This document shows, in pieces, positions 1 to 62,723 of a stretch of DNA of 64,000 nucleotides (position 1 is the first letter of the stretch; each line of letters begins with the position of its first letter). This stretch comes from Candidatus Aenigmatarchaeota archaeon (GTDB lineage: Archaea; Aenigmatarchaeota; Aenigmatarchaeia; PWEA01; JACQIF01): the NCBI GenBank assembly GCA_016432325.1, contig CP066684.1, positions 714,112 through 778,111 on the forward strand. The letters are read 5' to 3'. The position numbers and the translations under genes were made by a program. The notes under the pieces were generated by a model. That model had not been told where the DNA came from. It searched no databases and saw only the letters and a program-made list of their open reading frames with translations.

Positions 1-431
1 ATCTCGGTGCCAATGCCTTTGCATTTTTCGCAGCAGCCCAACGGGCTGTTGAAAGAGAAATGGCCAGCACTTAAATTTCTGGAACCTGCCCGTGAGAACA
101 GTAGCCTTAGATATGTGTAGATTTCTGTAACTGTGCCTACAGTAGAGCGGGGACTTTCTCTCAACTGTCTCTGTTCTATCATAATTGTTGGCGAGAGTCC
201 TTTAATGTCGTCTACGTCTGGTCGTTCGGTTCTTTGAAGGAGGCGAGCCGCGTATGTATCTAACGATTCCAAGAACTGCCGTTGCCCCTCGGAAAATATG
301 ATATCAAAAACAACAGTCGACTTGCCCGACCCAGAAACCCCAACGAGAGACGTTATCTTGTTACGGGGTATCTCAACGTCTATGTTCTTCAGGTTGTGTT
401 CCCGCGCTCCGAGAATTTCAATATGGTCCAT
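1..431 (-). CDS. UvrA-like ABC ATPase (excinuclease ABC subunit A family), N-terminal part; the CDS runs off the left edge
   Basis: Absent from the ORF track because it is open-ended. Reverse translation from the ATG at 431..429 gives [57 protein letters not shown]...[12 protein letters not shown]...[15 protein letters not shown]...[17 protein letters not shown]. It has a Walker A motif (GVSGSGKS) and the UvrA N-terminal signature. Confidence 0.8.
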
Positions 432-10619: not shown

Positions 10620-10670
10620 GGCCTCCGTGCGGCAAAAGCGTATATATCCTATTCGGTTCCTACCCGTCTC

Positions 10671-11963
10671 ATGGACTTCATGTCTGTGAGAGAGGCCATG
10701 GAACAGGAAGGCGGAACGGCCGCGCTGCGCGGCTGGTGCTCTACCGTGCGCACGCAGAAGACCACGGTTTTCATAATCCTGCGCGACGGAACCGGCCACA
10801 TACAGGTCACGTTCAAAGAAAGCGACACGGACGCCAAGACGTTCAAGGCCGCGTCAGAACTTACGACCGAATCATCCGTAACGCTTACAGGCACGGTCGC
10901 AAAGGACGCACGCGCGCCCGGCGGCTTCGAGGTCAAGGGGCGCACGCTTGACGTTGTGCAACTGGCCGAACCATATCCCATCGCCCGCGACAAGTCCCCG
11001 GAGTTCCTCATGGATCAGCGGCATTTGTGGATTCGTTCGCCGCAGATGACTGCGATACTGCGCGTGCGCTCGACGGTCTTCGGAGCCATACACGAATACT
11101 TCCGCTCGCAGAATTATTTTGAATTCCAGTCTCCTACGTTAACGAAGGCCGCTTGCGAGGGAGGTCCGACACTCTTCAAGGTCGACTACTTCGGAGACGA
11201 AGTTTTCTTAACGCAGTCGTGGCAGCTCTATGCGGAAGCAGGGATTCACGCTCTTGAGAAGATTTACTGCATTGCTCCTTCGTTCCGCGCGGAGAAGTCG
11301 CGCACGACGCGCCATCTCACAGAGTACTGGCACGCGGAGTGCGAGGCAGCGTGGATGGACTTGGACGGACTGGCGCGCGTGGCGGAAGGATTGATTTCGC
11401 ACATCTGCGCACGCGTCGCGGAGAAGAACCCTGAAGACTTGCGCACTCTCGGACGCGACCCCAACGATTTGCTCAAGATAACGCCTCCGTTCCCACGCAT
11501 CACGTACACCGAAGCGCTTGACATGCTGGCGAAGAAAGACGGCATCAAAATCAAGTGGGGCAAAGACCTCCGTACGGAAGAAGAGCGCGCGATTGCGCAG
11601 CATTTCGAACGTCCTGTCATAGTGACGCGCTATCCCAAGGAGATAATGGCCTTCTACAAGCCCGCGGATCCAAAGGATCCCAAGGTCGCTCTATGTTTCG
11701 ACGTGCTCTGCCCTGAGCTCGGAACAGAAATAATCGGCGGCTCGCAGAGGGACGCGGACGTGAAGGCCATGATAAAGGCGTTGAAGAAAGAAGGCGCTGA
11801 CCCGAAGTTCTATGACTGGTATTTTGCGACGCGACGTTACGGCGGCGTGCCTCACTCGGGCTTCGGCATGGGAGTGGAGCGCGTCATCCAGTGGATATGC
11901 AAGCTGGAGCACATCCGCGACACGATACCGTTCCCGAGAATGATGAATCGGTATTATCCTTGA
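10671..11963 (+). CDS. asnS: asparaginyl-tRNA synthetase (archaeal type, with OB-fold anticodon-binding domain)
   Basis: PSFRAEKSRTTRHLTEYWHAECEAAWMDL, EIIGGSQRD and RRYGGVPHSGFGMGVERV...IPFPR match archaeal AsnRS rather than AspRS (which has GAQR / PPHGGFGLG). The N-terminal LRGWCSTVRTQKTTVFIILRDGTGHIQV is the OB fold. Confidence 0.88.
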   Translation: MDFMSVREAMEQEGGTAALRGWCSTVRTQKTTVFIILRDGTGHIQVTFKESDTDAKTFKAASELTTESSVTLTGTVAKDARAPGGFEVKGRTLDVVQLAEPYPIARDKSPEFLMDQRHLWIRSPQMTAILRVRSTVFGAIHEYFRSQNYFEFQSPTLTKAACEGGPTLFKVDYFGDEVFLTQSWQLYAEAGIHALEKIYCIAPSFRAEKSRTTRHLTEYWHAECEAAWMDLDGLARVAEGLISHICARVAEKNPEDLRTLGRDPNDLLKITPPFPRITYTEALDMLAKKDGIKIKWGKDLRTEEERAIAQHFERPVIVTRYPKEIMAFYKPADPKDPKVALCFDVLCPELGTEIIGGSQRDADVKAMIKALKKEGADPKFYDWYFATRRYGGVPHSGFGMGVERVIQWICKLEHIRDTIPFPRMMNRYYP

Positions 11964-12579
11964 GGCTCATGACAATCCCTTCGACTTCTTTCATTACGTC
12001 TTCCGTCTTCGCGCGCTGTTGTAGCTCGTAAATCCCATTCAACACGCCTTCCACGACGAGTTGTTCTAGTGTAGCGCCTCCTCGACGCATCCTCTTTGCG
12101 TGTTCCGCATAGCCCATTGCGAAACTGACGTCCAACAGTATGTCATAAAGGCTGTTTTTACCATCATTGAAACCGTTTACGTGCCGCGTCCATTTTATCC
12201 GTGCACAACACCGCAACCAACAAGACATTCTTTCGTTGTATGTTATGCATGCGCCTGTCGCCGCCTTTGCCACACGCGATATCTTATCCGGAACTGTTTT
12301 ATCGCCCAATACAATATGATTTTCTGATAGGATATTTTCAATCGCATAGTCCCTCAACATCACGGCCTTCTGAAAGTTGTGCGGTGTCAGGAACATCACG
12401 TCCACCCATTTCCCCGTCTGAGCCTCGATTTTCCTTAGCACGTGGTGTGCTCCCTCCAGGGAGCCTACGTACACCACGTCAACATCTCCGGCATCCGCGC
12501 CCTTCCGCAGGTACGAGCCGTATATTATCACAAACTCGCCTTGCGGCACTTCCAAATCCAGTTCCCGAATCGCTAACAT
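11884..12579 (-). CDS. Pol-beta-superfamily nucleotidyltransferase with a helical C-terminal domain carrying an Rx4-6H (HEPN-like) motif
   Basis: IIYGSYLRKGADAGDVDVVYV is the minimal NTase GS-x(n)-DxD motif. CCARIKWTRHVNG contains R-x5-H. SD AGAGG lies 8 nt upstream of the ATG. It is the last gene of the micro-ORF operon. Its 3' end overlaps the convergent asnS by 80 nt. Confidence 0.55.
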   Translation of the reverse strand: MLAIRELDLEVPQGEFVIIYGSYLRKGADAGDVDVVYVGSLEGAHHVLRKIEAQTGKWVDVMFLTPHNFQKAVMLRDYAIENILSENHIVLGDKTVPDKISRVAKAATGACITYNERMSCWLRCCARIKWTRHVNGFNDGKNSLYDILLDVSFAMGYAEHAKRMRRGGATLEQLVVEGVLNGIYELQQRAKTEDVMKEVEGIVMSLKDNTDSSFSGTVSCRGCAPACISTG

Positions 12580-12629
12580 TCTCTCGCCTCTTATTGGTGC
12601 GCAGGGTCTGCAGCCCCGGCGCGTTCGTT

Positions 12630-12809
12630 TTATCCTAGCCTGAATCCGTCCCTGTACGGGACGAGTTTCCCCGAGGGACTTACGTGCGAAATGTCCACGT
12701 GCGGATACGGGTGGCCTCTCGACGAATGGATGTCGCTTATGACGGCCACGCTGCCGAACTCATTTAGGTATCCAAGTCGCATTTCCCTCATCGATGTCGG
12801 TACACTCAT
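12630..12809 (-). CDS. micro-ORF 4 (59 aa): MSVPTSMREMRLGYLNEFGSVAVISDIHSSRGHPYPHVDISHVSPSGKLVPYRDGFRLG
   Basis: Below the 60-aa cut-off of the ORF track. SD AGAGGTGA lies 4 nt upstream of the ATG at 12809. It is packed 31 nt after micro-ORF 3. Confidence 0.5.
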   Translation of the reverse strand: MSVPTSMREMRLGYLNEFGSVAVISDIHSSRGHPYPHVDISHVSPSGKLVPYRDGFRLG

Positions 12810-12840
12810 GTCTTCACCTCTTTGTTTTTTGTTCGTCGTT

Positions 12841-12984
12841 TCATCTCAGTCCACGCAACGCGTAGCTCTGTTCCAACGCGCTCATGTACAGCCCGGGTGG
12901 CTGCATCAGGTCGCTGGGCAGCGTGCCGCCGTACGGTATCGCGCTGTAGTGGCCCGGTCCGATCACTGGTCCTTGTCCGCTCAT
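12841..12984 (-). CDS. micro-ORF 3 (47 aa, Gly/Pro-rich): MSGQGPVIGPGHYSAIPYGGTLPSDLMQPPGLYMSALEQSYALRGLR
   Basis: Perfect SD GGAGGTG lies 7 nt upstream of the ATG at 12984. Not in the ORF track because it is under 60 aa. Confidence 0.5.
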   Translation of the reverse strand: MSGQGPVIGPGHYSAIPYGGTLPSDLMQPPGLYMSALEQSYALRGLR

Positions 12985-13021
12985 CGTTTTCACCTCCGTT
13001 GAACTTTTGTCGCGATGACAC

Positions 13022-13132
13022 TCATCGTCCCTTGTACTGTTTCATGCCGGCCTGACAGTTGGGACAGCACGGGTCAAACCCCGGCGGTCCGGGACAGTAC
13101 TCGGCCGACAATCTACTTGCGTACGTTTCCAT
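13022..13132 (-). CDS. micro-ORF 2 (36 aa, Cys-rich): METYASRLSAEYCPGPPGFDPCCPNCQAGMKQYKGR
   Basis: This is the tail of track ORF 13022..13252. The ATG at 13132 lies 5 nt after the stop of micro-ORF 1, with GGAGGG 12 nt upstream. Cysteine pattern C-x9-CC-x2-C. Confidence 0.4.
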   Translation of the reverse strand: METYASRLSAEYCPGPPGFDPCCPNCQAGMKQYKGR

Positions 13133-13137
13133 CACTC

Positions 13138-13326
13138 CTACCGCCCTCCGACGAGTTTCGCGTGCCCTTCGTACGCCGGGTTTCCGGCCAGCACGTCTCC
13201 CATTCTCTGTATGTACGCCCTGTCCGTCGACCAGTCCCAGCTCTGCGCCCACTTCTTTCTCTTCGCCGGCGCGCCTGGAATGAAGTACGACGGGCTTTCT
13301 TCATCCGTTCCCAATTCGTTCACCAT
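13138..13326 (-). CDS. micro-ORF 1 (62 aa): MVNELGTDEESPSYFIPGAPAKRKKWAQSWDWSTDRAYIQRMGDVLAGNPAYEGHAKLVGGR
   Basis: This is the tail of track ORF 13138..13395. SD AGGAGGTG lies 7 nt upstream of the ATG at 13326. It is the first gene of the operon. Confidence 0.5.
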   Translation of the reverse strand: MVNELGTDEESPSYFIPGAPAKRKKWAQSWDWSTDRAYIQRMGDVLAGNPAYEGHAKLVGGR

Positions 13327-13502
13327 TTCCAAACACCTCCTTTGTTTTTTTGTCGCGTTCTTTGGTCCTGCGTTGTCCGCAGGGTTGGAACCCAATTGAT
13401 TAGCGCCACCATAAAAAACAGTCGTGTTACAGCTAACTGAAAGGATAAATAGTTGTACGGTTAACTAATTATAACGAAAAACGTTAACCCAAACGGGAGC
13501 GC

Positions 13503-13510
13503 TATATAAG
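13503..13510 (+). promoter_or_regulatory. TATA box (TATATAAG) for the leaderless 13533 gene
   Basis: Centred 26.5 nt upstream of the ATG at 13533, in an AT-rich divergent intergenic region (13396..13532). That region also carries a TATA-like ctatttatcc (minus orientation, around 13445) for the micro-ORF operon. Confidence 0.55.
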
Positions 13511-13532
13511 GTTAATCTGTGGTGTATGAAGA

Positions 13533-14315
13533 ATGGACAAGGAGATAACACAGATTGTGTTTTTGGGTAATCCATACCATATGGAGAGGATAAGATACCT
13601 TCTAAGAAAACGCATTCCGCAAAAGGTCTACTTCATAGAGGCCGAGGAGAACAATCACAGGGAGGAAGCCAAGGAGATGGCAGAAAAGATGCGCTCCGAG
13701 CTTGAGGGGAATCTGCCGCGATGGGTGGTGGAAAAATCGGAGTTCACCGCTGTACCATTTTTTGACTTCACATCCGCTTTCATGAAACTAATCTCTATCA
13801 TGCACAACGAGATTAGGCAAGACAGAGACGTTCTTGTCAACGCCCACGGCGGCAGCGTGATAGTCACTACAGCAGCCCTCTTGGCAGCTAACGCTACCGG
13901 AGCAAAGGTATGCTGGGTTGAGCCCGAGAGCTGGGGGTTTGTAGAAATGGGAGGCCACGTTTCACATATGGCCAAAGGAGCCAAGGGCATCAAGGAGGTG
14001 GCGATTCCAATAAGCCTTGGAGTACCTGAGGGAGTGGACGCCAGCGTCCTCGGACATATCTACAGCAGAGGAGGAACCGTTAAGGGCAGACTGTCCGCCA
14101 TAACGGAGGACGTGGGCCTAGACAAGCTCGGCGCGAACGTGAAGAAGTCCAGCTCGGGCGTCGTGAAGCTCTCGAAGACCCTCGGCCGCCTCCGTGCGAA
14201 AGGCCTCATAGAGACGCGCAAGCTTGGCAGGAAATCCTTCGAAATCAAGCTCACCAAAGACAAGGGAGAGGTCGTGGGGAAGGTAGTGAGTCTGGTGTTA
14301 GAGAAAAGCATTTGA
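13533..14315 (+). CDS. Csa3/HFX_2341-like regulator: Rossmann-like (CARF-like) N-domain plus C-terminal winged helix
   Basis: The architecture parallels Csa3. The N-terminal strand is QIVFLGNPYH, followed by FDFTSAFMKLISIM, then VLVNAHGGSVIVTTAALLAA, then a wHTH (VLGHIYSRGGTVKGRLSAI...VVKLSKTLGRLRAKGLIETRKLGRKSFEIKLT). This is pattern resemblance only. Confidence 0.5.
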   Translation: MDKEITQIVFLGNPYHMERIRYLLRKRIPQKVYFIEAEENNHREEAKEMAEKMRSELEGNLPRWVVEKSEFTAVPFFDFTSAFMKLISIMHNEIRQDRDVLVNAHGGSVIVTTAALLAANATGAKVCWVEPESWGFVEMGGHVSHMAKGAKGIKEVAIPISLGVPEGVDASVLGHIYSRGGTVKGRLSAITEDVGLDKLGANVKKSSSGVVKLSKTLGRLRAKGLIETRKLGRKSFEIKLTKDKGEVVGKVVSLVLEKSI

Positions 14316-14319
14316 AGCT

Positions 14320-15732
14320 ATGCGCCTCAACGTTACCGTGTCTTATCAGGAACATTTAAAGAAGCTAAGGGAGCATCTGAGCAAAGAGAATATCCCCTTC
14401 GCCGACCAATTAGACGCCGTCTATGCCGAGATGGCAGAAATCGATAAAAAACTGCAGATGTCTTACCCGCGGCCCGACGCCCTCATCCTTTGCGGAGGCA
14501 ACGGAACCAGATTTGCGGAAGGCAAGAAACCAAAGGTCCTCGCCGAGGTCAATGGAAGAATCCCATTGGAGTATACAATCGACACGCTCGCAAAACTCAA
14601 CTTCGACAAAGCCTTCATATCCGTTGGAGGCCCTCACGGAGACTCCATTAATGCCCACCTGAAAGAGATGGAGGCAAAACCAATCGGGCTGCTTGGACTA
14701 ACGTCGAGGCCAACAATCATCGAATCCGTAGATTACGGCAGACTCATGTCACACCTACACCACATATCGAAGGCCAACGGGAAGCTGATTGAAAACGGGT
14801 GCGAGCCGCTCAATCCAAACCTATTTGACAACGAACTAGACACGATTGTCGGGGTTGCGGCAGTTGCGTACACCGCCGCGACTCAACCGCCCCTTACAGT
14901 CGTGCTCGGCGATTCTATCTACCAAGAAGATGCCATATCATGGGCGTCAGGGTACTATACAATCGAGGCAAACATGGGCTTGACGGAGATGATGCCTGGC
15001 ACACGGGGAATATCGCCACGATTTCCATACATAAAGCCGCTCGTCCATGTTATGGAGAATTCAACAGAGGCGTATAAGGCGCCAGTCCCCAAGATTCATA
15101 AATTATTCTCCGTTCGCAAAGGCCCCCTTTCCTTTGATATCGGGCGTGCCGTTGGGTTCACCGAACACAGGACAAAACGAGTTGCCATATCGGTTGTAAG
15201 CCCATTGCCCTTCGACTACAGGATTATCTTCAGAGATAACGACGATCCAGCTGGACGCTCTCTCCCCCTCACCGAGGACGGGTCCCGAATAGACATGGAG
15301 AAGATCGCGTTACCGGGGATTTCTTACGGAGGATTCCTTTCGCACCTGAAAGAGGTCCAGTCCATATTCCCGCCGCTGGAAACAGGAAGTCGCCAGAAGC
15401 CTGCGCGCCTGCCACCATCGGACGCTACGCTCGAGCTTGCCGAGGCTACCTCGTCGCTGCTTGTGATGAGAACAAACTTCAAGTACTTCGACATCGACGA
15501 CGAGGAGACGCTTGCCGCGGCCAACGACGTTGACATAAAGGAATTTATCGCCAACGATCCACTAAGCATCCTGGAGAAGTCGACGCCCGGATACAGAAAA
15601 CAGTTTCTGGAAAAGCTTAACGAGGCCAGACACCGCCACCAACATACGTTCCGTGCTACAACTGGGGGACTCGGGAACTTTAAAGACCTCTATCAGTATG
15701 CGCTACGTGCATTTCGTAGACACACCGGATAG
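14320..15732 (+). CDS. protein with an N-terminal sugar-phosphate nucleotidyltransferase (NTP_transferase) motif and a large uncharacterised C-terminal region
   Basis: ALILCGGNGTRFAEGKKPKVLAEVNG is the GxGxR...K signature of GlmU/RmlA-type NTP transferases. It begins 4 nt after the preceding gene. Confidence 0.5.
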   Translation: MRLNVTVSYQEHLKKLREHLSKENIPFADQLDAVYAEMAEIDKKLQMSYPRPDALILCGGNGTRFAEGKKPKVLAEVNGRIPLEYTIDTLAKLNFDKAFISVGGPHGDSINAHLKEMEAKPIGLLGLTSRPTIIESVDYGRLMSHLHHISKANGKLIENGCEPLNPNLFDNELDTIVGVAAVAYTAATQPPLTVVLGDSIYQEDAISWASGYYTIEANMGLTEMMPGTRGISPRFPYIKPLVHVMENSTEAYKAPVPKIHKLFSVRKGPLSFDIGRAVGFTEHRTKRVAISVVSPLPFDYRIIFRDNDDPAGRSLPLTEDGSRIDMEKIALPGISYGGFLSHLKEVQSIFPPLETGSRQKPARLPPSDATLELAEATSSLLVMRTNFKYFDIDDEETLAAANDVDIKEFIANDPLSILEKSTPGYRKQFLEKLNEARHRHQHTFRATTGGLGNFKDLYQYALRAFRRHTG

Positions 15733-15915
15733 AATAAGTCGCAAGCAAAACGGCCCGTCTAACCCTTAAATACCTTCTCCTTCCAATACTCGTCATGCGC
15801 GCAACACACGTACGAGAAAGTTCTGCATCCAGCCGCGCGAATAATACAGCCGTCTAGGGCCCATTTCTTCCCCAGACCACAGGCTTTACGTCAGTGTCAA
15901 CTCTATTAACCCAAT

Positions 15916-16024
15916 GCTCCGGTAGTTCAATTGGCAGAATGCTACGCTGTTAAACACTCCGCTCAAAGGGGCGGGTGCAAGCGGAGACGTAGAGACGGAG
16001 GTTCGAGTCCTCCCTGGAGCGCCA
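15916..16024 (+). tRNA. tRNA-Asn(GTT), canonical 37/38 intron (34 nt), CCA encoded
   Basis: Acceptor GCTCCGG/CTGGAGC plus G plus CCA. D arm GTTC-AATTGGCA-GAAT. Anticodon arm CTACG-CTGTTA[15953..15986]A-CGTAG. T arm GGAGG-TTCGAGT-CCTCC. The intron has a CTCCGC/GCGGAG helix. Mature length is 72 nt. A weak TATA (ctttacgt, 15884..15891) is centred 28.5 nt upstream. Confidence 0.9.
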
Positions 16025-16035
16025 TTGTGATAACC

Positions 16036-16293
16036 ATGGACATCGAAGAAGCGAAGAAGACCGCGAGGATAGCGAGGCTCGCGCTGAGCGAAGCCGAGCT
16101 CAGGAAGCTCGCCAAAGACGCGGATGAGATACTTGAGTGGGCCGAGCAGCTTGAGAGCGTGAAGAGCGAAACGGAAAAACGCGAGAGCGGCGCATTACGA
16201 GACGATCTGCCACAACACTTCGAGCCGCAAACGATAACTAAAAACTTCCCGCAGAAGAGCGGGTCGCATCTGAAGGTGCCGCGCTCGTTATGA
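16036..16293 (+). CDS. gatC: Asp/Glu-tRNA amidotransferase subunit C
   Basis: 85 aa, MDIEEAKKTARIARLALSEAELRKLAKDADEILEWAEQL. The ATG lies 11 nt after the tRNA-Asn CCA, and the stop overlaps the gatA start (ATGATG). Confidence 0.85.
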   Translation: MDIEEAKKTARIARLALSEAELRKLAKDADEILEWAEQLESVKSETEKRESGALRDDLPQHFEPQTITKNFPQKSGSHLKVPRSL

Positions 16294-17588
16294 TGGGCTC
16301 CAAGGAGATTCTCGGCCTGAGCACATCCGACGCGACAGAACGTTTTCACAAGCAGCTCACGCTCATAGAGAAGCAGAACAAGACATACAACGCGTTCGTT
16401 ACGGTCACAGACAAATATGCGAACGCCGGATATCCGTCGCTCGCAGTCAAGGACAACATACTCGTGGAAGGCATACGCTGCACATCCTCGTCGCGCGTTC
16501 TCGAAAACTACGTCGCGCCCTATTCGGCGGACGCGCTTCATAACGTCACGACGCACCTGCGCGTCATCGGCAAAACGGTGCACGATCCGTTCGGGGCTGG
16601 AGGTTCCGGCACGACATCCGATTTCGGCGCCACGAAAAACCCGTTTGACACGACGCGCGTTCCTGGTGGCTCTTCTGGAGGAAACGGAGTCGCGCTCGCT
16701 CTAGAGCAGTGCGACTTCGCGATAGGCAGCGACACTTTCGGCTCGGTACGTGCGCCTGCGGCGTTTTGCGGCGTCGTCGGCCTGCGTCCGACGTACGGAC
16801 TCGTTTCGCGCCACGGCTTGATGGACCTCGCGATGTCTCTTGATACTATAGCGCCGATGGCCCGCGACGTTTACGGAGTCGCGTATCTTCTGGAAAGAAT
16901 GGCGAACAAGCGATACGAACTGGATAAATTCTCGGCGAGGGGACTGAAGATTGTCGTACCGACAGAACTGCTGGATGGTTCGGCGAAGGAAGTCAGAGAC
17001 GCGGTTGAAAAGGCCATAGCGACGCTCACGGACGCGGGAGCGAAACGCGTTGACGTTCGCGCGCCTAACCTGCGCTACGCTGTTCCGTCTTACTACATCA
17101 CGATGTTTGCTGAGTTCTCGTCGGCGATGCAGCGGTTTGACGGCCTGAAATACGGGCCGCGCGCGGACGGCGAGACGCCGGAAGAAGCGGTTTCAAAGAC
17201 ACGCGGTTCGTACTTGAGCGAGGAGCTTAAACGGCGCATCTTCCTTGGCACGTATGCGACGCGCAAGGAGCACGCGAACAAGTGGTACGCCGCGGCTCTG
17301 CGAGGGCGCACGCTTGTCGCGAAAGAGATGCAGGGCCTGCTGAAGAAAGGCGACTTCATCGTGACGCCGACGATGCCTGTCCTGCCGTGGAAAATAGGAG
17401 AGCTCACGACGCCGCTTCAAAATTATCTGATGGACGTAATGACAGGCCCGCCTTCTCTGGCAGGTATGCCTGCGCTTAGCGTTCCGTGCGGCCGTACTGT
17501 CGGCCTGCAGATAATCGGGAACCGGTTCAAGGACGCGGAGGTATTGCAGCTCGGTCACGCATACGAGCGACTGAGGGATTCAAAATGA
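16290..17588 (+). CDS. gatA: Asp/Glu-tRNA amidotransferase subunit A (amidase signature family)
   Basis: 432 aa. Amidase signature GGSSGGNGVALA...GSDTFGSVRAPAAFCGVVGLRPTYG. Confidence 0.93.
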   Translation: MMGSKEILGLSTSDATERFHKQLTLIEKQNKTYNAFVTVTDKYANAGYPSLAVKDNILVEGIRCTSSSRVLENYVAPYSADALHNVTTHLRVIGKTVHDPFGAGGSGTTSDFGATKNPFDTTRVPGGSSGGNGVALALEQCDFAIGSDTFGSVRAPAAFCGVVGLRPTYGLVSRHGLMDLAMSLDTIAPMARDVYGVAYLLERMANKRYELDKFSARGLKIVVPTELLDGSAKEVRDAVEKAIATLTDAGAKRVDVRAPNLRYAVPSYYITMFAEFSSAMQRFDGLKYGPRADGETPEEAVSKTRGSYLSEELKRRIFLGTYATRKEHANKWYAAALRGRTLVAKEMQGLLKKGDFIVTPTMPVLPWKIGELTTPLQNYLMDVMTGPPSLAGMPALSVPCGRTVGLQIIGNRFKDAEVLQLGHAYERLRDSK

Positions 17589-20339: not shown

Positions 20340-23300
20340 GTGAAAAACCATAGGACGTTCTTGCTGACACTGTTCGCAGCGGCAATATTAATGGGCCCAT
20401 CGGCTCTCGCGCAGACTCCCGATTATCTGAACATAGACGCCGGAACGACTCCGGACGACCCGTTCTACTTCTTTGACACGACGTGGGATGGCGTCCAGAT
20501 GTTCATCGCAATCAGCCCAGAAGACAAGGCGGCGCTCGCCGCGGAAATCAGCGCGGAGCGCTTCGCCGAGATGCACCAGATGATGGAAGAGAACAACTGG
20601 GTGGCGGCCCAATCAGCGGCGCAAGGCGCCGAGTCGTGGACGGGCCAGTTCGCCACTGCGCTTGAGAGCCTGCCGCCTATTGTTGATCCTGTTGCTCTTG
20701 CAGAGATAGGAGAACTTTCTCATTATGTTAACGACTATTCAGATGCCGTACATGAGCAGTATGAAGAGCTTCTGGCGTCCGGCGAGCTTGATGAGGCGAC
20801 GGCAGACACGCTGCCTGTAGACGCCCTTGTCGAAAGCACTGTTGACGCCCAGGCCGGTTATGTCGAAGCCAAGGACGAGGTCATAGCGGCCGCGGCCGAG
20901 GAACAGGGAATCACGCAAATAGAGGCCGGGATACAGTACTCCAATGCCGAGGAGGATGTGGGCCTGACAGACGTGCAGAAGGATGCGGTCGCTACGGAAC
21001 TCGTGGACGCGCGAGATGCGGCGACTGAACTTGAGGAGGCGTACTTGGCTCTGCCTGACGGCGAGGAGAAGCTCGTCCTAGGCAACATGGTGGAGGACGC
21101 GAAGCTCAACCTGCAACAGAGCGAGTACCTGTTCAAGGCGGGCGATTATGACGCAGCTTCCGGCAATCTCATCGAGGGACAGCACTGGATATTCAACGCG
21201 CAGGACTACGCTGGCGGCGAGCTGACCGAGGACCAAAAGGCCGCCTTTGAAGAGCAGTTCACGAACGTGGAAGCCATAAGGGACGAGGTAACGGACGGGA
21301 GCGCGACTTTCGTGGAAGAGTGGGAAGCCAACAAGGACGCCCTGACAGCCGCATATCCTGAAGAGGCGGCGATTCTTGAGCAGCGCTTCGAGCAGGAGCA
21401 GAACGTTGTTGCTATAGCGACCGCCCTTGAAGAATCATATTCAACAGAGCTCAACGACCTGATTACGGCAGGCGAGGACCCGTCAGAGGCCGCTCGGATA
21501 TTGGCGGCGCAGCAGGCCGACGAATACAGGAAGGCATACGGCGAGGAGTTCGTTCCTCCGGGATTCATCGTAACGGGTGAGATTGAACTGCCTGAAGGAG
21601 CCGATGCAACTGCGGTAGAGAATTTCGCCGATCCTGAAATCGCGGCTGGCGCAGGCGGCGGCTTCGTGATAGGAACGCAGTACGTTGATCCAGTCACGGA
21701 TTACAAGTATGAGTTCGTCGAAACGGGCTGGAGATTCACGACTCCGTCCGGCCAGGCATACGAGCATCCATATCCTGAAGGATACGAACCGGCGTCCGCC
21801 TTCGAGAACGGCAACGAAGAGTACAGTTATACTGTCGACACTCCAGAAGGGCTCGCTCAATATACGTATACTCCTACCGGATACGAAGTCGTCACGCCTG
21901 AAGGAACGACCGAAACTTATGCTTACACGCCCGGGCAGTATAAGCTTCCTGACGGCAAGACAGTGAACTACAAGCCGACCGGCTACGAGATAAGGGACGG
22001 CGCGGTCGTCGAGGCAAAATACGATTACAATCCCGAGTTCAACGCCTACGCGTCCGCCGACGGCACGGTCTACAGGCCGCCTGACGGGGCGTACTACCAC
22101 TACAAGACCGACTACAGCGCAGTCGAGGGAAAATACACTTATGCCGCGGGCAGCGACACGTGGACATACGATCCCAAGACCGCTTCGTGGGCTTCCGGAG
22201 GCGGAGAGACCTACAAGCCGCCCACGGCCGTCGTAGCGCCTGTCGGTTACGAGTCTGACGGCGTTTACCGCTCGCCATCAGGCGTCAGATGGGATTACAA
22301 TTCTGGCACAGGAACGTGGGGATCCACAAGCGGGGAATCCTACAACTCTGCAAACGGCGCGTACCGCTCTGCAACAGGCGCCACAACCACGCACGCTTAC
22401 GATTACAGCAGGCCAACCTACGGCTACGATGCGAGAACGCAGGAGTACAGGTTTGACACCGTGACGCGCGAAGGCACAGGCACGTGGACATACAACCCGC
22501 AGGCGAACATCTGGACGTCAGGCTCTGGAGAAACTACAGAAGCAAGTCGCGGTTACGTGCCGCCTACCACGTTGAACTACCCAACGCCCGTGGCGTATCA
22601 GTCTCCATCGTTCTATCCATACCCATCGCCAGGACAGGCGTACGTGACGCCGGCTCCTTACCAGACACCGTCTTACCAGACTCCCAACTTCGCTTACCAG
22701 ACTCCTTACTACTCCTACCCCTCGCCCTCGTACGTTTACCCGTCGCCCGGCACGTATCCAACGCCTTCGTACGTCTACCCCACTCCGTACCAGTACCCGA
22801 CACCGGGAAATACATACCCGTCGCCATACTACGCCTACCCAACTCCGGGACAGTACTACCAGACGCCAAACTACTACATCTACCCGACGCCAAGCTCCAC
22901 GTACCCAACGCCTGCGTACACATACCCGTCTCCCTACTACTCTTACCCTTCGCCGTCTGACTCCTACCAGACTCCGTACTACGCTTACCCGTCTCCATCC
23001 TCTTACCCAACGCCCTCATACACATATCCAACTCCGGGAACAGAGTACGCTTACCCAACGCCTTCGACCACAGGATATTCGTACCCATCGCCTTCGTACG
23101 CGACACCATACACCTATCCCACTCCGGGCTCGTACCCAACACCATACTACCAGAGCCCCACGTACTACGCTTACCCCACGCCTTCCGCAGACTACGTGAC
23201 GCCAACATACTACTCGTACCCGTCGCCGTCTGAAGGCAGCTACCCGTACCCAACGCCTTCATACCCGTCTCCGTATTCGTACCCGACACCGGGAACCGGC

Positions 23301-23693
23301 TACTCGTATCCGTCGCCTTCGTACAGCTACCCGACACCTTCGTCATACACATATCCGACCCCGGGCAGCGCATACGGATATCCGTCGCCTTCGTACACGT
23401 ACCCATCCCCGACGGGTACTTACGTAACGCCTTCCTACTCGACGCCCTCATACGCCTACCCGACTCCAACAGAGGGAGGTTACTCGTATCCATCGCCTTA
23501 CCCGTATCCAACGCCGTCCGAGGGAGGTTACCCGTACCCAACGCCTTACGCGTCTCCGTCCGAAGGATATTCGTACCCATCGCCTGGTTCGTACCCAACT
23601 CCGTCCGAAGGTTATGCCTATCCAACTCCGTACGGAACTCCTGAGTCGTACGGCACACCATACGACTACCCATCTCCGTACGGCACGCCCTAG
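20340..23693 (+). CDS. large secreted/surface protein: signal peptide, acidic helical N-region (DUF5667-like), beta-rich middle, and a ~375-aa Y/P/T/S low-complexity tail
   Basis: 1117 aa. N-terminus MKNHRTFLLTLFAAAILMGPSALAQ. DDPFYFFDTTWDGVQMFIA...AERFAEM resembles DUF5667. The tail is made of YPTPS / YPSPS / YQTP units and has no C-terminal TM helix. GTG start, with a TATA (gatttatata) about 35 nt upstream. Confidence 0.8.
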   Translation: MKNHRTFLLTLFAAAILMGPSALAQTPDYLNIDAGTTPDDPFYFFDTTWDGVQMFIAISPEDKAALAAEISAERFAEMHQMMEENNWVAAQSAAQGAESWTGQFATALESLPPIVDPVALAEIGELSHYVNDYSDAVHEQYEELLASGELDEATADTLPVDALVESTVDAQAGYVEAKDEVIAAAAEEQGITQIEAGIQYSNAEEDVGLTDVQKDAVATELVDARDAATELEEAYLALPDGEEKLVLGNMVEDAKLNLQQSEYLFKAGDYDAASGNLIEGQHWIFNAQDYAGGELTEDQKAAFEEQFTNVEAIRDEVTDGSATFVEEWEANKDALTAAYPEEAAILEQRFEQEQNVVAIATALEESYSTELNDLITAGEDPSEAARILAAQQADEYRKAYGEEFVPPGFIVTGEIELPEGADATAVENFADPEIAAGAGGGFVIGTQYVDPVTDYKYEFVETGWRFTTPSGQAYEHPYPEGYEPASAFENGNEEYSYTVDTPEGLAQYTYTPTGYEVVTPEGTTETYAYTPGQYKLPDGKTVNYKPTGYEIRDGAVVEAKYDYNPEFNAYASADGTVYRPPDGAYYHYKTDYSAVEGKYTYAAGSDTWTYDPKTASWASGGGETYKPPTAVVAPVGYESDGVYRSPSGVRWDYNSGTGTWGSTSGESYNSANGAYRSATGATTTHAYDYSRPTYGYDARTQEYRFDTVTREGTGTWTYNPQANIWTSGSGETTEASRGYVPPTTLNYPTPVAYQSPSFYPYPSPGQAYVTPAPYQTPSYQTPNFAYQTPYYSYPSPSYVYPSPGTYPTPSYVYPTPYQYPTPGNTYPSPYYAYPTPGQYYQTPNYYIYPTPSSTYPTPAYTYPSPYYSYPSPSDSYQTPYYAYPSPSSYPTPSYTYPTPGTEYAYPTPSTTGYSYPSPSYATPYTYPTPGSYPTPYYQSPTYYAYPTPSADYVTPTYYSYPSPSEGSYPYPTPSYPSPYSYPTPGTGYSYPSPSYSYPTPSSYTYPTPGSAYGYPSPSYTYPSPTGTYVTPSYSTPSYAYPTPTEGGYSYPSPYPYPTPSEGGYPYPTPYASPSEGYSYPSPGSYPTPSEGYAYPTPYGTPESYGTPYDYPSPYGTP
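22560..23693 (+). repeat. degenerate in-frame tandem repeats encoding (Y-P-[TS]-P-[SG]-x-Y)n
   Basis: Repeated tacccaacgccttcg / tacccgtcgcc units are visible throughout. The long antisense ORFs here (for example 22564..23673) are by-products. Confidence 0.8.
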
Positions 23694-29258: not shown

Positions 29259-29522
29259 TGGCGGGCCCGGAGGGACGTTCATGAAACGCCCGGCGTTTCT
29301 AACTTTCAGCTCCTTCGGAGCCAAAAGCTTTCGAACCCTCGACATCTTGGTGTCTTTTGCCGAGCGTAGGCATTCGAAGCCAAGCGCTCTATTTACCCCG
29401 CCTTGCGGGAGCGGATTTCATTCGGGAGTGCTCTCCCAATGTGCCGGAACTTTGTTCCGTGCATTCCCGCGGGTTTTTGCACGGACGTGTGCAAAAAGGC
29501 GCCCAAGCTGAGCCACGGACCC
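29259..29522 (-). tRNA. tRNA-Arg(TCG), three introns (D-loop ~111 nt, anticodon loop ~22 nt, T-loop ~54 nt), CCA encoded
   Basis: Approximate exons: 29522..29502, 29390..29373, 29350..29330, 29275..29262. Acceptor GGGTCCG/CGGGCCC (one G-U pair) plus G plus CCA. D arm GCTC-AGCTTGGGA-GAGC. Anticodon arm CTTGG-CTTCGAA-CCAAG. Variable loop ATGTC. T arm GAGGG-TTCGAAT-CCCTC. Mature length is 74 nt. Confidence 0.8.
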
Positions 29523-39452: not shown

Positions 39453-39460
39453 TATTTAAA
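39453..39460 (+). promoter_or_regulatory. TATA box (TATTTAAA) upstream of the tRNA-Leu(GAG) locus
   Basis: Centred 29.5 nt upstream of the pseudo-5' copy at 39486, and 78 nt upstream of tRNA position 1 at 39535. Confidence 0.55.
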
Positions 39461-39485
39461 AGGGCCGGCTCATCAGGAAACATAT

Positions 39486-39534
39486 GCGGGAGTAGCCAGA
39501 ACTGCGGTTCTGAAACTCCCCCATTGAAGAACAT
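39486..39534 (+). other. promoter-proximal duplicate of the tRNA-Leu(GAG) 5' end, folded as a hairpin (leader or extra intron)
   Basis: GCGGGAGTAGCC (39486..39497) is identical to tRNA positions 1-12. GGGAGT pairs with ACTCCC (39515..39520), enclosing the hairpin AGAAC-TGCG-GTTCT. Confidence 0.6.
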
Positions 39535-39756
39535 GCGGGAGTAGCCTAGACTGGTCAATGGCGCCGGCTTGAGGGGCCGGTTCCTTAGTGGATTCGCCGG
39601 TTCAAAGCTTTTTGCGCCAATGCGCATAAAGCTCAACGCGCAAAAGGCTTTAGCAGAAATACGCCTTCGTGCATCTTCGAACGATTGCGTTCGAAGTATT
39701 TCGGACGCAGTCCGAAAACGAAGGCGCGCGTTTCGAAATTCCGGCCTCCCGCACCA
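39535..39756 (+). tRNA. tRNA-Leu(GAG), one 133-nt T-loop intron (59/60), CCA encoded
   Basis: Exons are 39535..39606 and 39740..39753. Acceptor GCGGGAG/CTCCCGC plus A plus CCA. Anticodon arm CCGGC-TTGAGGG-GCCGG. Long variable arm TTCCTTAGTGGATTC. T arm GCCGG-TTCAAA[39607..39739]T-CCGGC. Mature length is 86 nt. Confidence 0.85.
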
Positions 39757-39786: not shown

Positions 39787-40002
39787 ATGGCATGCGATAC
39801 GTGTGGCTCGAAGGAAGATCATGACATCTGCATTCTAGGAGTAGAACGGTTGGACATGTACTACGATCCGGCAGGCATCGATGACATGGCGGAACCGCCG
39901 ATCGACGAATACGCCGAGAGGAGATTGCGATTGTCTTCTGCCGGCAATCGATCCAACCAAAGAAAACTCGACGACTACGTTATTTCTTCCCTGCCTTCTT
40001 GA
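39787..40002 (+). CDS. possible small acidic protein (71 aa, MACDTCGSKEDHDICILG...)
   Basis: TATA-like ctatttattcg is centred about 25 nt upstream of the ATG (leaderless spacing). This is the tail of track ORF 39685..40002. It overlaps the convergent lysS by 23 nt. Confidence 0.35.
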   Translation: MACDTCGSKEDHDICILGVERLDMYYDPAGIDDMAEPPIDEYAERRLRLSSAGNRSNQRKLDDYVISSLPS

Positions 40003-41518
40003 CTTTCTTCACCACGTGCCCCTTGACTTCGTCGCCGAAGGAACGGTCTTCCTCGACCCGCTTTTCCGCGCGCTCTGGAACCATCTGCGGGAATAAAATG
40101 ACTTCCTTTATGGAGCTCTGGTTGGTTAGCAGCATCACCAAGCGGTCTATACCGATGCCTACGCCGCCTGTGGGAGGCATGCCGCACTCCAGCGCGCGTA
40201 TGAAATCTTCATCCATCTGGTGCGCTTCCGCGTGTCCGCGCTTGCGCATCGCGGCCTGCTGCTCGAAGCGCGAGCGCTGGTCTATCGGGTCGTTGAGCTC
40301 CGAAAACGCGTTGGCGAACTCGCGGCCCGTGATGAACAGCTCGAAACGCTCGGTGACGCCCGGTTCCCCGCGCTTCATCTTTGCGAGAGGCGACACCTCA
40401 ACAGGATAGTCCGTTATGAACGTCGGGTTAACGATTTTTGGTTCGACGAACTCCTCGAAGAACGCTTCGATGAGCTCTCCGCGAGTGGCGCCCTTGTCAG
40501 TTTCGAGACCGTGTTTCTTCGCCAGCGCGCGCAGCTCTTCCAGCGTACGGCCGAAGGTTTCGATGCCGGCTCCGCGCACGGCGTCTTCCATCGTGACGCG
40601 CCTCCACGGGGATTTGAGGTTTATCTTCTGGCCTTGATATTCGAATTCGAGCGTTCCGAGCGCCTTTATAGCAACGTGCTGGAATAGCCGCTCAACAAAG
40701 CCCATCATGTACTCGTAGTCCACGTACGCCTCGTAGAACTCCAGCATCGTGAACTCCGGGTTGTGCGTCGTATCGATGCTTTCGTTACGGAAGTCCTTGC
40801 TTATCTCGTAGACCTTTTCCATGCCGGCCACGACGAGACGTTTCAGGTACAGTTCGTCCGCGATGCGGAGATACATATCGACATCCAAATCGTTGTGATG
40901 CGTTTTGAACGGGCGTGCCATCGCGCCGCCGTATATCGGCTGCAGTATCGGCGTCTCGACCTCGACGTAGCCGTGCTTGTCGAGAAACTCGCGCGCCGCC
41001 TGTATAATCTTGGTGCGCGCGGCGAATATCCTGCGCACGTCGGGGTTCATCACCATATCGAGATATCGCTGCCTGTAGCGCACCTCGACGTCCTTCAAAC
41101 CGAACCACGTCGACGGAATCGGATAGAGGCATTTGGAAAGCAGCACGAGTTCTTCGGCCGCGATGGAGACTTCTCCCTTGAGAGTCTTCATGACCTTGCC
41201 TTTCGCGCCTATGTGGTCGCCGCGGTCAAGCAGACGGGAAATCCATGCGTACGCGTCGCCTATAGAGTCCGCGGACACGTAGACCTGAATCTTGCCTGTT
41301 GCGTCTTGCAAATCGATAAACGTCAGCTTGCCGTGAGTGCGTATGCCGTAGATGCGGCCCGCCACGCTGGCGCGCGCGCCTTCGTGCTTCGCGTAGGCGT
41401 TCACTATGTCTCCCGCGGTGTGCGTGCGGTCGTATGCGTACGCAAAGGGCTCGATGCCCAGCTTCTTCAACTCTTCCAGCTTGCGCAGGCGTTCTGCACG
41501 TGTGTCCATCGACTTCAC
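39980..41518 (-). CDS. lysS: lysyl-tRNA synthetase, class II
   Basis: 512 aa. OB-fold N-domain (VAGRIYGIRTHGKLTFIDLQDATGKIQVYV). Class II motifs FRNESIDTTHNPEFTMLEFY and GMPPTGGVGIGIDRLVMLL. Lys-rich C-terminal tail KGHVVKKVKKAGKK. Confidence 0.92.
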   Translation of the reverse strand: MKSMDTRAERLRKLEELKKLGIEPFAYAYDRTHTAGDIVNAYAKHEGARASVAGRIYGIRTHGKLTFIDLQDATGKIQVYVSADSIGDAYAWISRLLDRGDHIGAKGKVMKTLKGEVSIAAEELVLLSKCLYPIPSTWFGLKDVEVRYRQRYLDMVMNPDVRRIFAARTKIIQAAREFLDKHGYVEVETPILQPIYGGAMARPFKTHHNDLDVDMYLRIADELYLKRLVVAGMEKVYEISKDFRNESIDTTHNPEFTMLEFYEAYVDYEYMMGFVERLFQHVAIKALGTLEFEYQGQKINLKSPWRRVTMEDAVRGAGIETFGRTLEELRALAKKHGLETDKGATRGELIEAFFEEFVEPKIVNPTFITDYPVEVSPLAKMKRGEPGVTERFELFITGREFANAFSELNDPIDQRSRFEQQAAMRKRGHAEAHQMDEDFIRALECGMPPTGGVGIGIDRLVMLLTNQSSIKEVILFPQMVPERAEKRVEEDRSFGDEVKGHVVKKVKKAGKK

Positions 41519-43164: not shown

Positions 43165-43256
43165 ATCCGACCGCTCCTCTGAAAGGGTCGCTCGCGAAGG
43201 TTTAAATAGCTCATGCCGCAAGGGCGGGAGCTTTAAACCGCCCAGCGCCCGGAAGG

Positions 43257-43264
43257 TTTAAATA
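43257..43264 (+). promoter_or_regulatory. TATA box (ggTTTAAATAgg) for rps17e
   Basis: Centred 26.5 nt upstream of the ATG at 43287. Confidence 0.6.
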
Positions 43265-43286
43265 GGCAACGTCTAAACCTCCAGCT

Positions 43287-43587: not shown

Positions 43588-43956
43588 TGGTGCGGAGGGC
43601 CGGACATTCTCCATGAATGCGCCAAGGCACATCGTGCCCGCAGGCGGATTTTTCATGAAAGTTTTTGCACGGAAGTGTGCAAAAAGTTTCGAACCGACGA
43701 ACGCACTAAGCGACCAGATATCTCGAAGCGCATTTTTGATTTTCGCGTTTCGGATAAGCCTTCTTGAGTGTTGCCTCTCACAGAGTTTCCTCTCGAAACT
43801 CAAGGAACTGGCACCGTTGGTCTACGACTTCGTGTCGGAAGACGTACTTTCCGTGCATCTCGGAACGCGTGCGTTCCGAGTTTCCGAATACCGTTCGGAA
43901 ATGCTTTTGCGCTCTGTGGCGCAAAAGCTTGCTTGGCCAGGCTTGGTTACCTCCGC
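43588..43956 (-). tRNA. tRNA-Leu(CAA), four introns (D-loop, anticodon stem 30/31, 37/38, T-loop 59/60), CCA encoded
   Basis: Exons are 43956..43933, 43816..43808, 43769..43763, 43719..43688 and 43604..43591. Acceptor GCGGAGG/CCTCCGC plus A plus CCA. The spliced anticodon arm is CCAGA-CTCAAGA-TCTGG (a perfect 5 bp). The variable arm TCGCTTAGTGCGTTC parallels that of Leu-GAG. T arm GTCGG-TTCGAAT-CCGGC. Mature length is 86 nt. Introns are 116, 38, 43 and 83 nt. Confidence 0.7.
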
Positions 43957-44015
43957 AAACTAAACCGACTTTCTTGCGGCAGGTACAAGAAGCTTTGCTT
44001 CTTGGTTACCTCCGC
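43957..44015 (-). other. promoter-proximal duplicate of the tRNA-Leu(CAA) 5' end, folded as a hairpin
   Basis: GCGGAGGTAACCAAG (44015..44001) is identical to tRNA positions 1-15. GCGG/GGTA pairs with TACCTGCCGC (43985..43976), enclosing the hairpin AAGAAGC-AAA-GCTTCTT. Confidence 0.6.
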
Positions 44016-44041
44016 ATTGCTAATCGCTTCAGAAACAAAGG

Positions 44042-44049
44042 ATATAAAT
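44042..44049 (-). promoter_or_regulatory. TATA box (ATTTATAT) upstream of the tRNA-Leu(CAA) locus
   Basis: Centred 30.5 nt upstream of the pseudo-5' copy at 44015. Confidence 0.55.
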
Positions 44050-44697: not shown

Positions 44698-44824
44698 GCG
44701 CCGATGATCTAGTGGCATGATTCGAGCTTCCCAAGCTCGTTGTGCGGGTTCGATGACATCCTGTCCCATGGGGCGGGAGGTTTGAAACGCGAAGCGTTTC
44801 AGGAATATCCCGCTCGGCGCACCA
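44698..44824 (+). tRNA. tRNA-Gly(CCC), one ~53-nt T-loop intron (58/59 or 59/60), CCA encoded
   Basis: Exons are 44698..44753 and 44807..44821. Acceptor GCGCCGA/TCGGCGC plus A plus CCA. Anticodon arm CGAGC-TTCCCAA-GCTCG. T arm GCGGG-TTCGA[intron]AT-CCCGC. Mature length is 71 nt. Confidence 0.85.
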
Positions 44825-62543: not shown

Positions 62544-62723
62544 AGACCGTTGACGTGAAGCCCTGAAGATAAGCTTGCGGCGCCCGCTTTAACAGAGGTA
62601 ATACCGAACAGTGTGTTATGGAGCCCCGGGTGAGGCGCCCACCCAGAATGTGGAACCTTTACTATGTCACTAAAATCCGACACTGATTATTGTATGTGTT
62701 TGTATTTATAGATTATCGGTGGA

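Follow-up and report, generated by a model that had tools for sequence, protein, structure and literature searches.

The stretch of DNA described here, which we call the window, is 64,000 nucleotides of contig CP066684.1 from an Aenigmarchaeota-like DPANN archaeon. The genome is small (approximately 875 kb), and the 64-kb window makes up 7% of it. The window is archaeal, and the homologues of its Nop56 protein carry the name Candidatus Aenigmarchaeota or Aenigmatarchaeota. The window was extended through other assemblies by 6.4 kb on its right side; on the left these assemblies added nothing. Seven tRNA genes were recovered in the window by searching for paired acceptor strands and then NCCA, with and without a check of the T-arm. 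Two of these are tRNA-Leu genes. Each is preceded by a leader that contains a copy of the gene's own 5′ end, and this leader is the subject of the analysis. The two genes are:

39535..39756, plus strand: tRNA-Leu(GAG) gene, exons 39535-39606 and 39740-39756 including CCA, T-loop intron 39607-39739 (133 nt)
43588..43956, minus strand: tRNA-Leu(CAA) gene, exons 43956-43937, 43820-43808, 43769-43762, 43718-43688, and 43604-43588 including CCA

The four introns of tRNA-Leu(CAA) are 116, 38, 43, and 83 nt long, and its spliced length is 89 nt. ARAGORN calls the spliced sequences tRNA-Leu gag and tRNA-Leu caa.

The copy upstream of tRNA-Leu(GAG), GCGGGAGTAGCC at 39486-39497, is identical to positions 1-12 of this tRNA, with an offset of 49 nt from the gene start at 39535. 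The copy upstream of tRNA-Leu(CAA), GCGGAGGTAACCAAG at 44015-44001 on the minus strand, is identical to positions 1-15, with an offset of 59 nt from the gene start at 43956. When the preceding AT (GAG) or T (CAA) is counted, the exact repeats are 14 and 16 nt long. The elements of the two leaders are as follows:

39455..39462, plus strand: TATA box TTTAAAAG of tRNA-Leu(GAG), 23 bp upstream of the copy (21 bp from the box to position -2)
39484..39497, plus strand: direct copy of tRNA-Leu(GAG) positions -2..12, ATGCGGGAGTAGCC, the predicted transcript start
39497..39512, plus strand: GAG apical hairpin CAGAAC-TGCG-GTTCTG, a perfect stem, then AA
39515..39524, plus strand: GAG inverted copy ACTCCCCCAT, which pairs with A-2..U8 of the copy with a C2xC mismatch and resembles the 3′ acceptor strand CTCCCGCA
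39525..39534, plus strand: GAG linker TGAAGAACAT, unpaired, purine/U-rich, 10 nt, last base U-1
44041..44048, minus strand: TATA box TTTATATC of tRNA-Leu(CAA), 25 bp upstream of the copy
44001..44016, minus strand: direct copy of tRNA-Leu(CAA) positions -1..15, TGCGGAGGTAACCAAG
43986..44004, minus strand: CAA apical hairpin CAAGAAGC-AAA-GCTTCTTG, its 5′ strand beginning at C12 of the copy
43975..43985, minus strand: CAA inverted copy TACCTGCCGCA (TACCT-G-CCGCA), which pairs with U-1..A9 of the copy with one bulged G and resembles the 3′ acceptor strand CCTCCGCA
43957..43974, minus strand: CAA linker AGAAAGTCGGTTTAGTTT, unpaired, 18 nt, last base U-1

Both leaders fold stably (-19.2 kcal/mol, z -3.5, for GAG; -24.2 kcal/mol, z -4.4, for CAA), and the register is common to the two loci. 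The basal stem runs from -2/-1 to 8/9, no pairs form at positions 10-11, and C12 opens the apical stem, which is perfect and 6-8 bp long. Each basal stem has one defect near its base, the C2xC mismatch in GAG and the bulged G in CAA. The linkers before +1 are unpaired in the minimum-energy and centroid folds at both loci. An earlier description made from the letters alone (the sequence-only reading) had placed the copies 49 and 59 nt upstream, had paired the copied strand with a downstream complement around a perfect hairpin, and had seen one architecture at both loci. Its coordinates are accurate to the base, the leaders do fold in this way, and the shared architecture extends to the register.

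The complementary segment downstream repeats positions -2..9 in inverted orientation. As their reverse complement, it therefore resembles the true 3′ acceptor strand and discriminator (ACTCCCCCA vs CTCCCGCA in GAG; CCTGCCGCA vs CCTCCGCA in CAA). Within positions 1-12 the two tRNAs differ from each other at positions 5, 6, and 10. Each copy agrees with its own tRNA at these positions, and so do the inverted segments. Rfam gave no RNA family and no self-cleaving ribozyme in the leaders, either at the gathering threshold or at E values up to 10. No C/D-box or K-turn motif was found in them by sequence inspection. Both leaders open with AUG and a three-codon frame, AUG CGG GAG UAG at 39484-39495 and AUG CGG AGG UAA at 44017-44006 on the minus strand. 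This would be a 5′-terminal AUG if the transcript were leaderless. The frame probably just follows from the tRNA sequence, with its stop at the conserved U8-A9, and from the pyrimidine-purine (YR) start context.

The position of the promoter was compared among all seven tRNA genes of the window by aligning their upstream regions on the TATA 8-mer. The other five genes are:

15916-16024: tRNA-Asn(GTT)
7752-7548, minus strand: tRNA-Gln(TTG)
27085-26866, minus strand: tRNA-Glu(CTC)
29522-29259, minus strand: tRNA-Arg(TCG)
44698-44824, plus strand: tRNA-Gly(CCC)

The distance from the TATA 8-mer to position 1 of the tRNA is 23 bp for Asn and Gln, 24 bp for Arg and Glu, and 27 bp for Gly. The tRNA-Thr(CGT) gene just outside the window (L127, approximately position 17650) has a 26-bp spacer, no copy, and no leader. 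At the two Leu genes, it is the first base of the copy that lies at this distance from the box (23 bp in GAG and 25 bp in CAA). No TATA-like box is present 20-40 bp upstream of the true 5′ end at either Leu locus. The spacing and the missing box together make it very probable that the transcript begins at the copy or no more than two bases away. A purine-rich element lies a few bases upstream of the TATA box in all seven genes, and +1 is G or A in all six non-Leu tRNA genes. The same spacing, and the start at the copy, had been proposed in the sequence-only reading, and both agree with the distances measured here. The box centers given there, 29.5 and 30.5 nt upstream, become -27.5 and -29.5 in our alignment, a gap that is due only to the definition of the box.

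The Leu leader feature is real, statistically solid, and lineage-restricted. Nine local exact direct repeats of at least 12 nt within 120 nt occur in the window against 0.37 expected, and two of the nine are the Leu copies. The region of the copies recurs without mismatch in two further independent assemblies from other sequencing runs. The three assemblies are identical here, and the feature is therefore not an assembly artefact. None of the six other tRNA genes of this genome that were inspected (five in the window and tRNA-Thr) has a copy.

For comparison with other archaea, one genome per GTDB species was scanned with GCGGRRGTARCCNAGNCTGGNCAA, which gave at least 120 tRNA-Leu loci from many archaea. 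The window's own genome and its close relatives were not among the survey matches listed, and 116 of the listed loci had enough upstream sequence. In these, the longest substring common to the upstream 100 nt and tRNA positions 1-16 was at most 9 nt, with a mode of 4-5 nt, compared with 12 and 15 nt here. A comparable copy was thus found in none of the approximately 116 tRNA-Leu loci from other archaea among the matches listed. It is absent, too, from the four Aenigmatarchaeota tRNA-Leu loci listed there (L032, L053, L054, and L097). A TATA box can be read in L054 and L097, approximately 30 bp from the true +1; upstream of the L032 and L053 genes the sequence is not clearly readable. A survey had been proposed as the means of telling a chance local duplication from a feature present in relatives. 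Chance does not account for repeats of 12 and 15 nt. Scans of a metagenome collection were empty, and a control pattern known from L067, L093, and L097 was also unmatched, so this collection does not contain these lineages. Relatives identified through lysyl-tRNA synthetase, Nop56, and PurP are at most 76% identical and lie on short contigs with no tRNA-Leu beside the shared genes. A full-text literature search found no description of such a tRNA leader, and we know of no described archaeal example of a leader made of a self-copy.

The reading that we find most probable, at about even chances, is that this element is a structured 5′ leader, the hairpin of which sequesters the redundant 5′ acceptor strand and which is removed at the true +1. 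On this model each tRNA-Leu gene would be transcribed from a normal archaeal BRE/TATA promoter (BRE, transcription factor B recognition element) set on a duplicate of its first 12-15 nt. The nascent duplicate would pair with the inverted copy 14-20 nt downstream and form a stable, nearly blunt 5′-terminal stem-loop. In this stem-loop, an asymmetry of 2-3 nt at positions 9-11 would separate a basal acceptor-stem mimic from a perfect apical stem. A single-stranded linker of 10-18 nt with a final U-1 would follow, and then the genuine tRNA. The leader of 49 or 59 nt would be cut at the true +1 by a 5′-maturation enzyme, probably RNase P, and the mature tRNA would come from the downstream copy. 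The hairpin would keep the redundant 5′ strand occupied and leave the 3′ acceptor strand to the genuine 5′ strand. It may also shield the triphosphate 5′ end of the long multi-intron precursors.

The sequestering role is suggested by calculated folding energies. Within the precursor, the leader has a single long-range partner, the real 3′ acceptor strand with A73, which is complementary to U-1..G7 of the copy over 8 nt at both loci. Apart from this strand, no complement of at least 8 nt was found between leader and trailer or between leader and intron in the precursors. We folded each leader with its spliced tRNA, forcing one or the other 5′ strand into the acceptor stem, and repeated this with the inverted segment scrambled in silico:

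GAG, wild type: productive fold -61.1 kcal/mol, copy in acceptor stem -63.2 kcal/mol
CAA, wild type: productive fold -57.5 kcal/mol, copy in acceptor stem -58.5 kcal/mol
GAG, inverted segment scrambled: productive fold -51.0 kcal/mol, copy in acceptor stem -57.4 kcal/mol
CAA, inverted segment scrambled: productive fold -43.4 kcal/mol, copy in acceptor stem -52.6 kcal/mol

The wild-type folds are nearly isoenergetic. Once the inverted segment is scrambled, the misfold is ahead by 6-9 kcal/mol; in these calculations the inverted copy therefore largely neutralizes the competitor strand. Because the hairpin can finish forming before transcription reaches the true 5′ strand, with the 3′ strand another 220-430 nt away, the order of folding favors the productive fold.

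Cleavage at +1 by RNase P is probable. A survey of three partial Aenigmarchaeota genomes detected RPP29 and RPP21 but neither POP5 nor RPP30 (PMC4919917, Table S1A). DPANN archaea lack HARP, and one or more RNase P proteins were encoded in each archaeal genome examined (PMC6380272). By default, RNase P is therefore to be expected in this lineage. The unpaired linker with U-1 is an ordinary RNase P substrate context. As in pre-tRNA leaders that RNase P removes, the Leu element lies between the predicted start and position 1, and a single-stranded stretch with U-1 abuts the cleavage site. It differs from them in being made of direct and inverted copies of the tRNA 5′ end, with an acceptor-stem mimic at the 5′ end of the transcript. 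It differs as well in its distribution, since in this genome such a leader stands on tRNA-Leu only and the other tRNA genes appear to have almost none.

Those other genes resemble the leaderless tRNA genes of Nanoarchaeum equitans, in which promoter placement is strict and RNase P is lacking (PMC10100707). The likeness lies in the fixed spacing of 23-27 bp from TATA to +1, the purine at +1, and the CCA encoded here. For the Leu genes the same spacing applies only to the copy, and the predicted start differs from the mature tRNA end unless 49 or 59 nt are removed. Moreover, Nanoarchaeum has no RNase P, whereas RPP29 and RPP21 are reported for this phylum. The fixed TATA spacing and the purine at +1 raise the question of whether the lineage needs RNase P.

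Several points weigh against a sequestering, processed leader. The misfold is still slightly favored thermodynamically, so the model leans on the order of co-transcriptional folding. Sequestration accounts for the inverted copy but not for the existence of the direct copy. The copies are identical at 14 of 14 and 16 of 16 positions and the remainder of the leader is dissimilar, a pattern suggestive of some constraint, or of a common mechanism that acted recently, neither of which the model names. It is odd, too, that only tRNA-Leu should have a long leader when the other tRNA genes look leaderless or almost so, like those of Nanoarchaeum. In the 64-kb window, 7% of the genome, no RNase P component was found: Rfam detected no RNase P RNA in it, and no gene for an RNase P protein, an integrase, or a casposase was present among the 40 small open reading frames scanned. 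Comparative support is absent from the relatives found, with their low identity and their short contigs lacking tRNA-Leu. Finally, the start site is inferred from the position of the promoter, and the cleavage site and the sequestering role are inferences as well.

A functional leader would mean that, in nature, a tRNA gene uses copies of its own acceptor strands to control how a long multi-intron precursor folds or is processed, and this in a lineage with otherwise leaderless-looking tRNA genes. It also provides a handle on the use of RNase P in this DPANN lineage and on how promoter position, 5′-end formation, and intron removal are coordinated.

The leader may instead be a neutral scar, that is, a non-functional by-product of a local mutation that moved the promoter upstream and was tolerated since it folds and is trimmed. 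We regard this as possible, though doubtful. The repeat takes in the non-tRNA bases -2 and -1, as expected for a duplication with arbitrary ends, and the inverted segment is a plain reverse complement of -2..9. Duplications of similar kinds exist in the genome. One was made by an integrase at a tRNA end and has a similar length (the 15-nt attachment (att) repeat at the tRNA-Thr 3′ end), and another short duplication of a promoter region is found at 43196/43252. The absence of the feature from the approximately 116 other archaeal tRNA-Leu loci listed, including the four from Aenigmatarchaeota, also fits a scar. A scar would not readily explain why the same architecture and register occur at both tRNA-Leu genes and at none of the six other tRNA genes, or why each copy and inverted segment matches its own tRNA at the differing positions 5, 6, and 10. 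Perfect identity of the copies is likewise unexpected when the other 35-43 nt look random. The repeats have only these 35-43 nt between them, with no integrase, element, or terminal inverted repeats. Either one mechanism acted twice on tRNA-Leu genes, or selection or copying holds the copy equal to the tRNA.

A scar could have arisen by tandem duplication of the first ~50-60 bp, by insertion through a template switch or snap-back (which would give a direct and an inverted repeat), or as the footprint of a mobile element. Alignment of the leader remainder (35-43 nt) with the downstream gene or with the other leader gave no significant similarity (p ~0.33, 0.14, and 0.49). These alignments led us to reject both an origin by tandem duplication of the gene's first 49 or 59 nt and homology of the two leaders. 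The CAA leader has a match, AAGCAAAGCTTCTTG vs AAGCAAGCTTTTG, at the start of the D-loop intron that is suggestive but not provable. A casposon-like or transposon footprint with a target duplication of 14-16 bp was rejected because the inserts lack terminal inverted repeats. Concerning age, tRNA-Leu(GAG) resembles its L097 orthologue more than it does the Leu(CAA) of the same genome, and the other Aenigmatarchaeota loci lack the leader; it is therefore unlikely that the leader is older than the split of the isoacceptors. If the leader is a scar, it shows a tRNA promoter displaced by a short duplication, with the competitor strand neutralized by an inverted repeat.

Partial duplications of tRNA genes at integrase att sites offer a parallel to such a scar. 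They share with the Leu element a short direct repeat of a tRNA end of ~15 nt, as exemplified at tRNA-Thr here. They differ in that the Leu repeat is of the 5′ end, encloses 35-43 nt without an element, is accompanied by an inverted copy, and carries the promoter on its upstream member. A repeat identical to the tRNA terminus is present at the Leu loci (14 and 16 nt); a recombinase element between the repeats is not, since the inserts are 35 and 43 nt. Enclosing so little, and lying at the 5′ end, the Leu repeats are not att sites of a present element. The tyrT/rtT locus of E. coli has repeats of the 3′ end of a tRNA gene.

The element at tRNA-Thr is an observation in its own right. It is ~7.5 kb long (7,479 bp between the repeats), has a lower G+C content (37-55%), and spans the window from 62618-62632 to 64000 and L127 from 9895 to 17388. 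On either side of it lies the 15-nt direct repeat ATGGAGCCCCGGGTG, whose sequence is that of the 3′ end of tRNA-Thr(CGT), a multi-intron gene on the minus strand. A Phage_integrase gene lies beside tRNA-Thr, and imperfect inverted repeats are found at the ends of the element. The promoter-region duplication mentioned above is a promoter-like 14-mer, GAAGGTTTAAATAG, which occurs twice (43196-43209 and 43252-43265), 56 bp apart, in the Nop56-S17e intergenic region; the pair is another short duplication of a promoter region in the genome.

A regulatory function of the four complementary strands is less likely again. The copy (strand 1), the inverted copy (2), the true 5′ strand (3), and the 3′ acceptor strand (4) would form a bistable, attenuator-like gate on the maturation of tRNA-Leu. 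Pairing 1:2 with 3:4 would give a processable pre-tRNA, and pairing 2:3 with 1:4 a dead-end or differently processed molecule. In its strongest form, which we also consider improbable, this is a purpose-built device in which one of two isoenergetic pairings matures normally and the other is diverted, either to a dead end or to a route without RNase P or a bulge-helix-bulge that uses the promoter-proximal copy as the 5′ end. The element would then be a tRNA-Leu-specific cis switch or a new kind of intervening sequence. The two folds lie within 1-2 kcal/mol of each other at both loci, selection for dual pairing with strand 2 would produce precisely such an identity of strands 1 and 3, and the 1:2 helix has a defect at both loci (C2xC in GAG and the bulged G in CAA). 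The AUG and three-codon frame of the copy could hold a ribosome on a leaderless transcript. Any duplication that is both direct and inverted would, however, automatically make the two folds equally stable, and their equal stability therefore does not count as independent evidence for a switch. The AUG and stop are dictated by the conserved U8 and A9 and the common YR start context, and there is no known effector.

Known systems of a similar kind are the 5′-terminal stem-loops that stabilize bacterial RNAs and the attenuator-type leaders with four segments. With these the Leu element has in common a hairpin at the extreme 5′ end and four mutually exclusive segments of near-equal stability. It differs in being derived from acceptor strands and in lying upstream of a tRNA, not an mRNA.

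The sequence-only reading had left it undecided whether the copy belongs to a structured leader or is the real exon 1 followed by one more intron. The stable stem-loop and the promoter on the copy favor the structured leader, and the missing bulge-helix-bulge disfavors the intron, which we hold to be very improbable. On the intron reading the copy would serve as the true exon 1, splicing would remove the 49 or 59 nt that follow it, with the downstream copy among them, and the tRNA would be leaderless and have no need of RNase P. In-register splicing would give an identical mature sequence. The genome is rich in non-canonical introns, with 1-4 per intron-bearing tRNA gene, the promoter spacing is like that of a leaderless system, and the fold with the copy in the acceptor stem is slightly the most stable.

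The defining test is that of the splicing motif. We enumerated the bulge-helix-bulge candidates of the tRNA genes, spliced all combinations, and let ARAGORN decide which yield tRNAs. Eleven introns were accepted: Asn 37/38; Arg D, anticodon, and T; Glu anticodon and T; Gln D, anticodon, and T; Gly T; and Leu-CAA T. In all 11, at least 3 of the 4 central pairs (H) are present, together with a flanking helix (h or h′) of 5 bp or more. The in-register junctions between the copies (k=1-14 for GAG, 1-17 for CAA) have neither a bulge-helix-bulge nor a relaxed variant of it; the best candidates among them have H=4/4, h=0, and h′ of at most 1. A splice inside an exact repeat places the central helix between identical 4-mers, so a self-complementary 4-mer is needed; an exact repeat cannot form the central helix of exon and intron unless it is palindromic. 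The 4-mers that qualify are TGCG at both loci and TATG/CATG in GAG only, and exon 1 would then be only 3-5 nt long. An in-register join of the two copies restores the contiguous gene, so a functional cloverleaf results trivially. With no flanking helices, compared with 11 of 11 accepted introns that have one, the reading of the copy as a real exon 1 with an extra intron fails the splicing-motif test.

Two known gene organizations may be compared here. Like archaeal non-canonical tRNA introns (bulge-helix-bulge, or relaxed hBH and HBh′ types), the Leu element lies inside tRNA coordinates if the copy is counted as exon 1. Unlike them, it has no bulge-helix-bulge, and the 3′ end of the "intron" repeats exon 1 rather than complementing it. 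Split and permuted tRNA genes (Nanoarchaeum, Caldivirga, Cyanidioschyzon) also have a tRNA fragment with its own promoter, followed by a segment complementary to tRNA-adjacent sequence. Here, by contrast, the downstream Leu gene is complete from position 1 to CCA, the segment pairs with the fragment itself, and there is no bulge-helix-bulge.

Least likely of all, and hardly to be expected, is that the released leader is itself the product, a ~40-60 nt RNA mimicking the tRNA-Leu acceptor stem as a decoy or ligand for leucyl-tRNA synthetase, a modification enzyme, or a nuclease: the hairpin is very stable, and its basal stem reproduces acceptor pairs 1-7 and positions 8-9 with an A at the discriminator position, but it is not a faithful minihelix (16-18 stacked layers vs 12, no T-loop, no CCA), and pair 2:71 is broken in GAG and a bulge is present in CAA. 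An acceptor/T-arm minihelix, the mimic used for tRNase Z, the CCA-adding enzyme, or aminoacyl-tRNA synthetases, is a coaxial helix of ~12 bp with a 7-nt T-loop, an unpaired discriminator, and a 3′ CCA. The Leu leaders have an internal asymmetry, a tetraloop or triloop, no CCA, and a "discriminator" A paired with U-1.

The tRNA genes of the window are highly interrupted. All but tRNA-Asn (six of seven) are interrupted at non-canonical positions, with 1-4 introns each of 22-133 nt. The introns lie in the D-loop, the anticodon arm, and the T-loop at 59/60, and most of their splice motifs belong to the relaxed hBH or HBh′ type. All eight tRNA genes inspected (the seven of the window and tRNA-Thr outside it) encode CCA. 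On the unspliced window ARAGORN found none of the seven tRNA genes, and Rfam found tRNA-Asn only. For annotation, this means that standard tRNA finders miss six of the seven tRNA genes here, and that a naive "first match" to a tRNA 5′ end may be a decoy.

Several of the introns contain common modules. A 26-nt hairpin module, CTTTTTGCACAC(G/T)TCCGTGCAAAAAC, is common to tRNA-Arg (D-loop intron, 29473-29498) and tRNA-Leu(CAA) (T-loop intron, 43661-43686), on the minus strand in both cases; chance alone would give none. Modules resembling GCTTTT(T)GCGC...GCGCAAAAGC are present at the start of other introns. These shared modules suggest intron duplication or mobility. Assemblies tend to break at the intron hairpin modules. 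Just 3′ of tRNA-Gln, an 18-nt direct repeat, GAGGTTCGAAGATTTTCA, occurs at 7386-7403 and 7495-7512, 109 nt apart, inside larger repeated units. It resembles a T-arm with the start of an intron and could be a degenerate or unrecognized disrupted RNA gene.

Two further features of the window are in protein-coding sequence. The lysyl-tRNA synthetase gene at 39980-41518 on the minus strand encodes a bacterial-type class II enzyme. Its best matches are one archaeal relative at 76% identity and otherwise Firmicutes-like proteins at 55-58%, which suggests that the gene was acquired horizontally. Direct repeats of 12-19 nt with 21-72 nt spacing are clustered at 22672-23600, within an open reading frame of 1117 amino acids (20340-23693), and this cluster is probably a repetitive protein domain.

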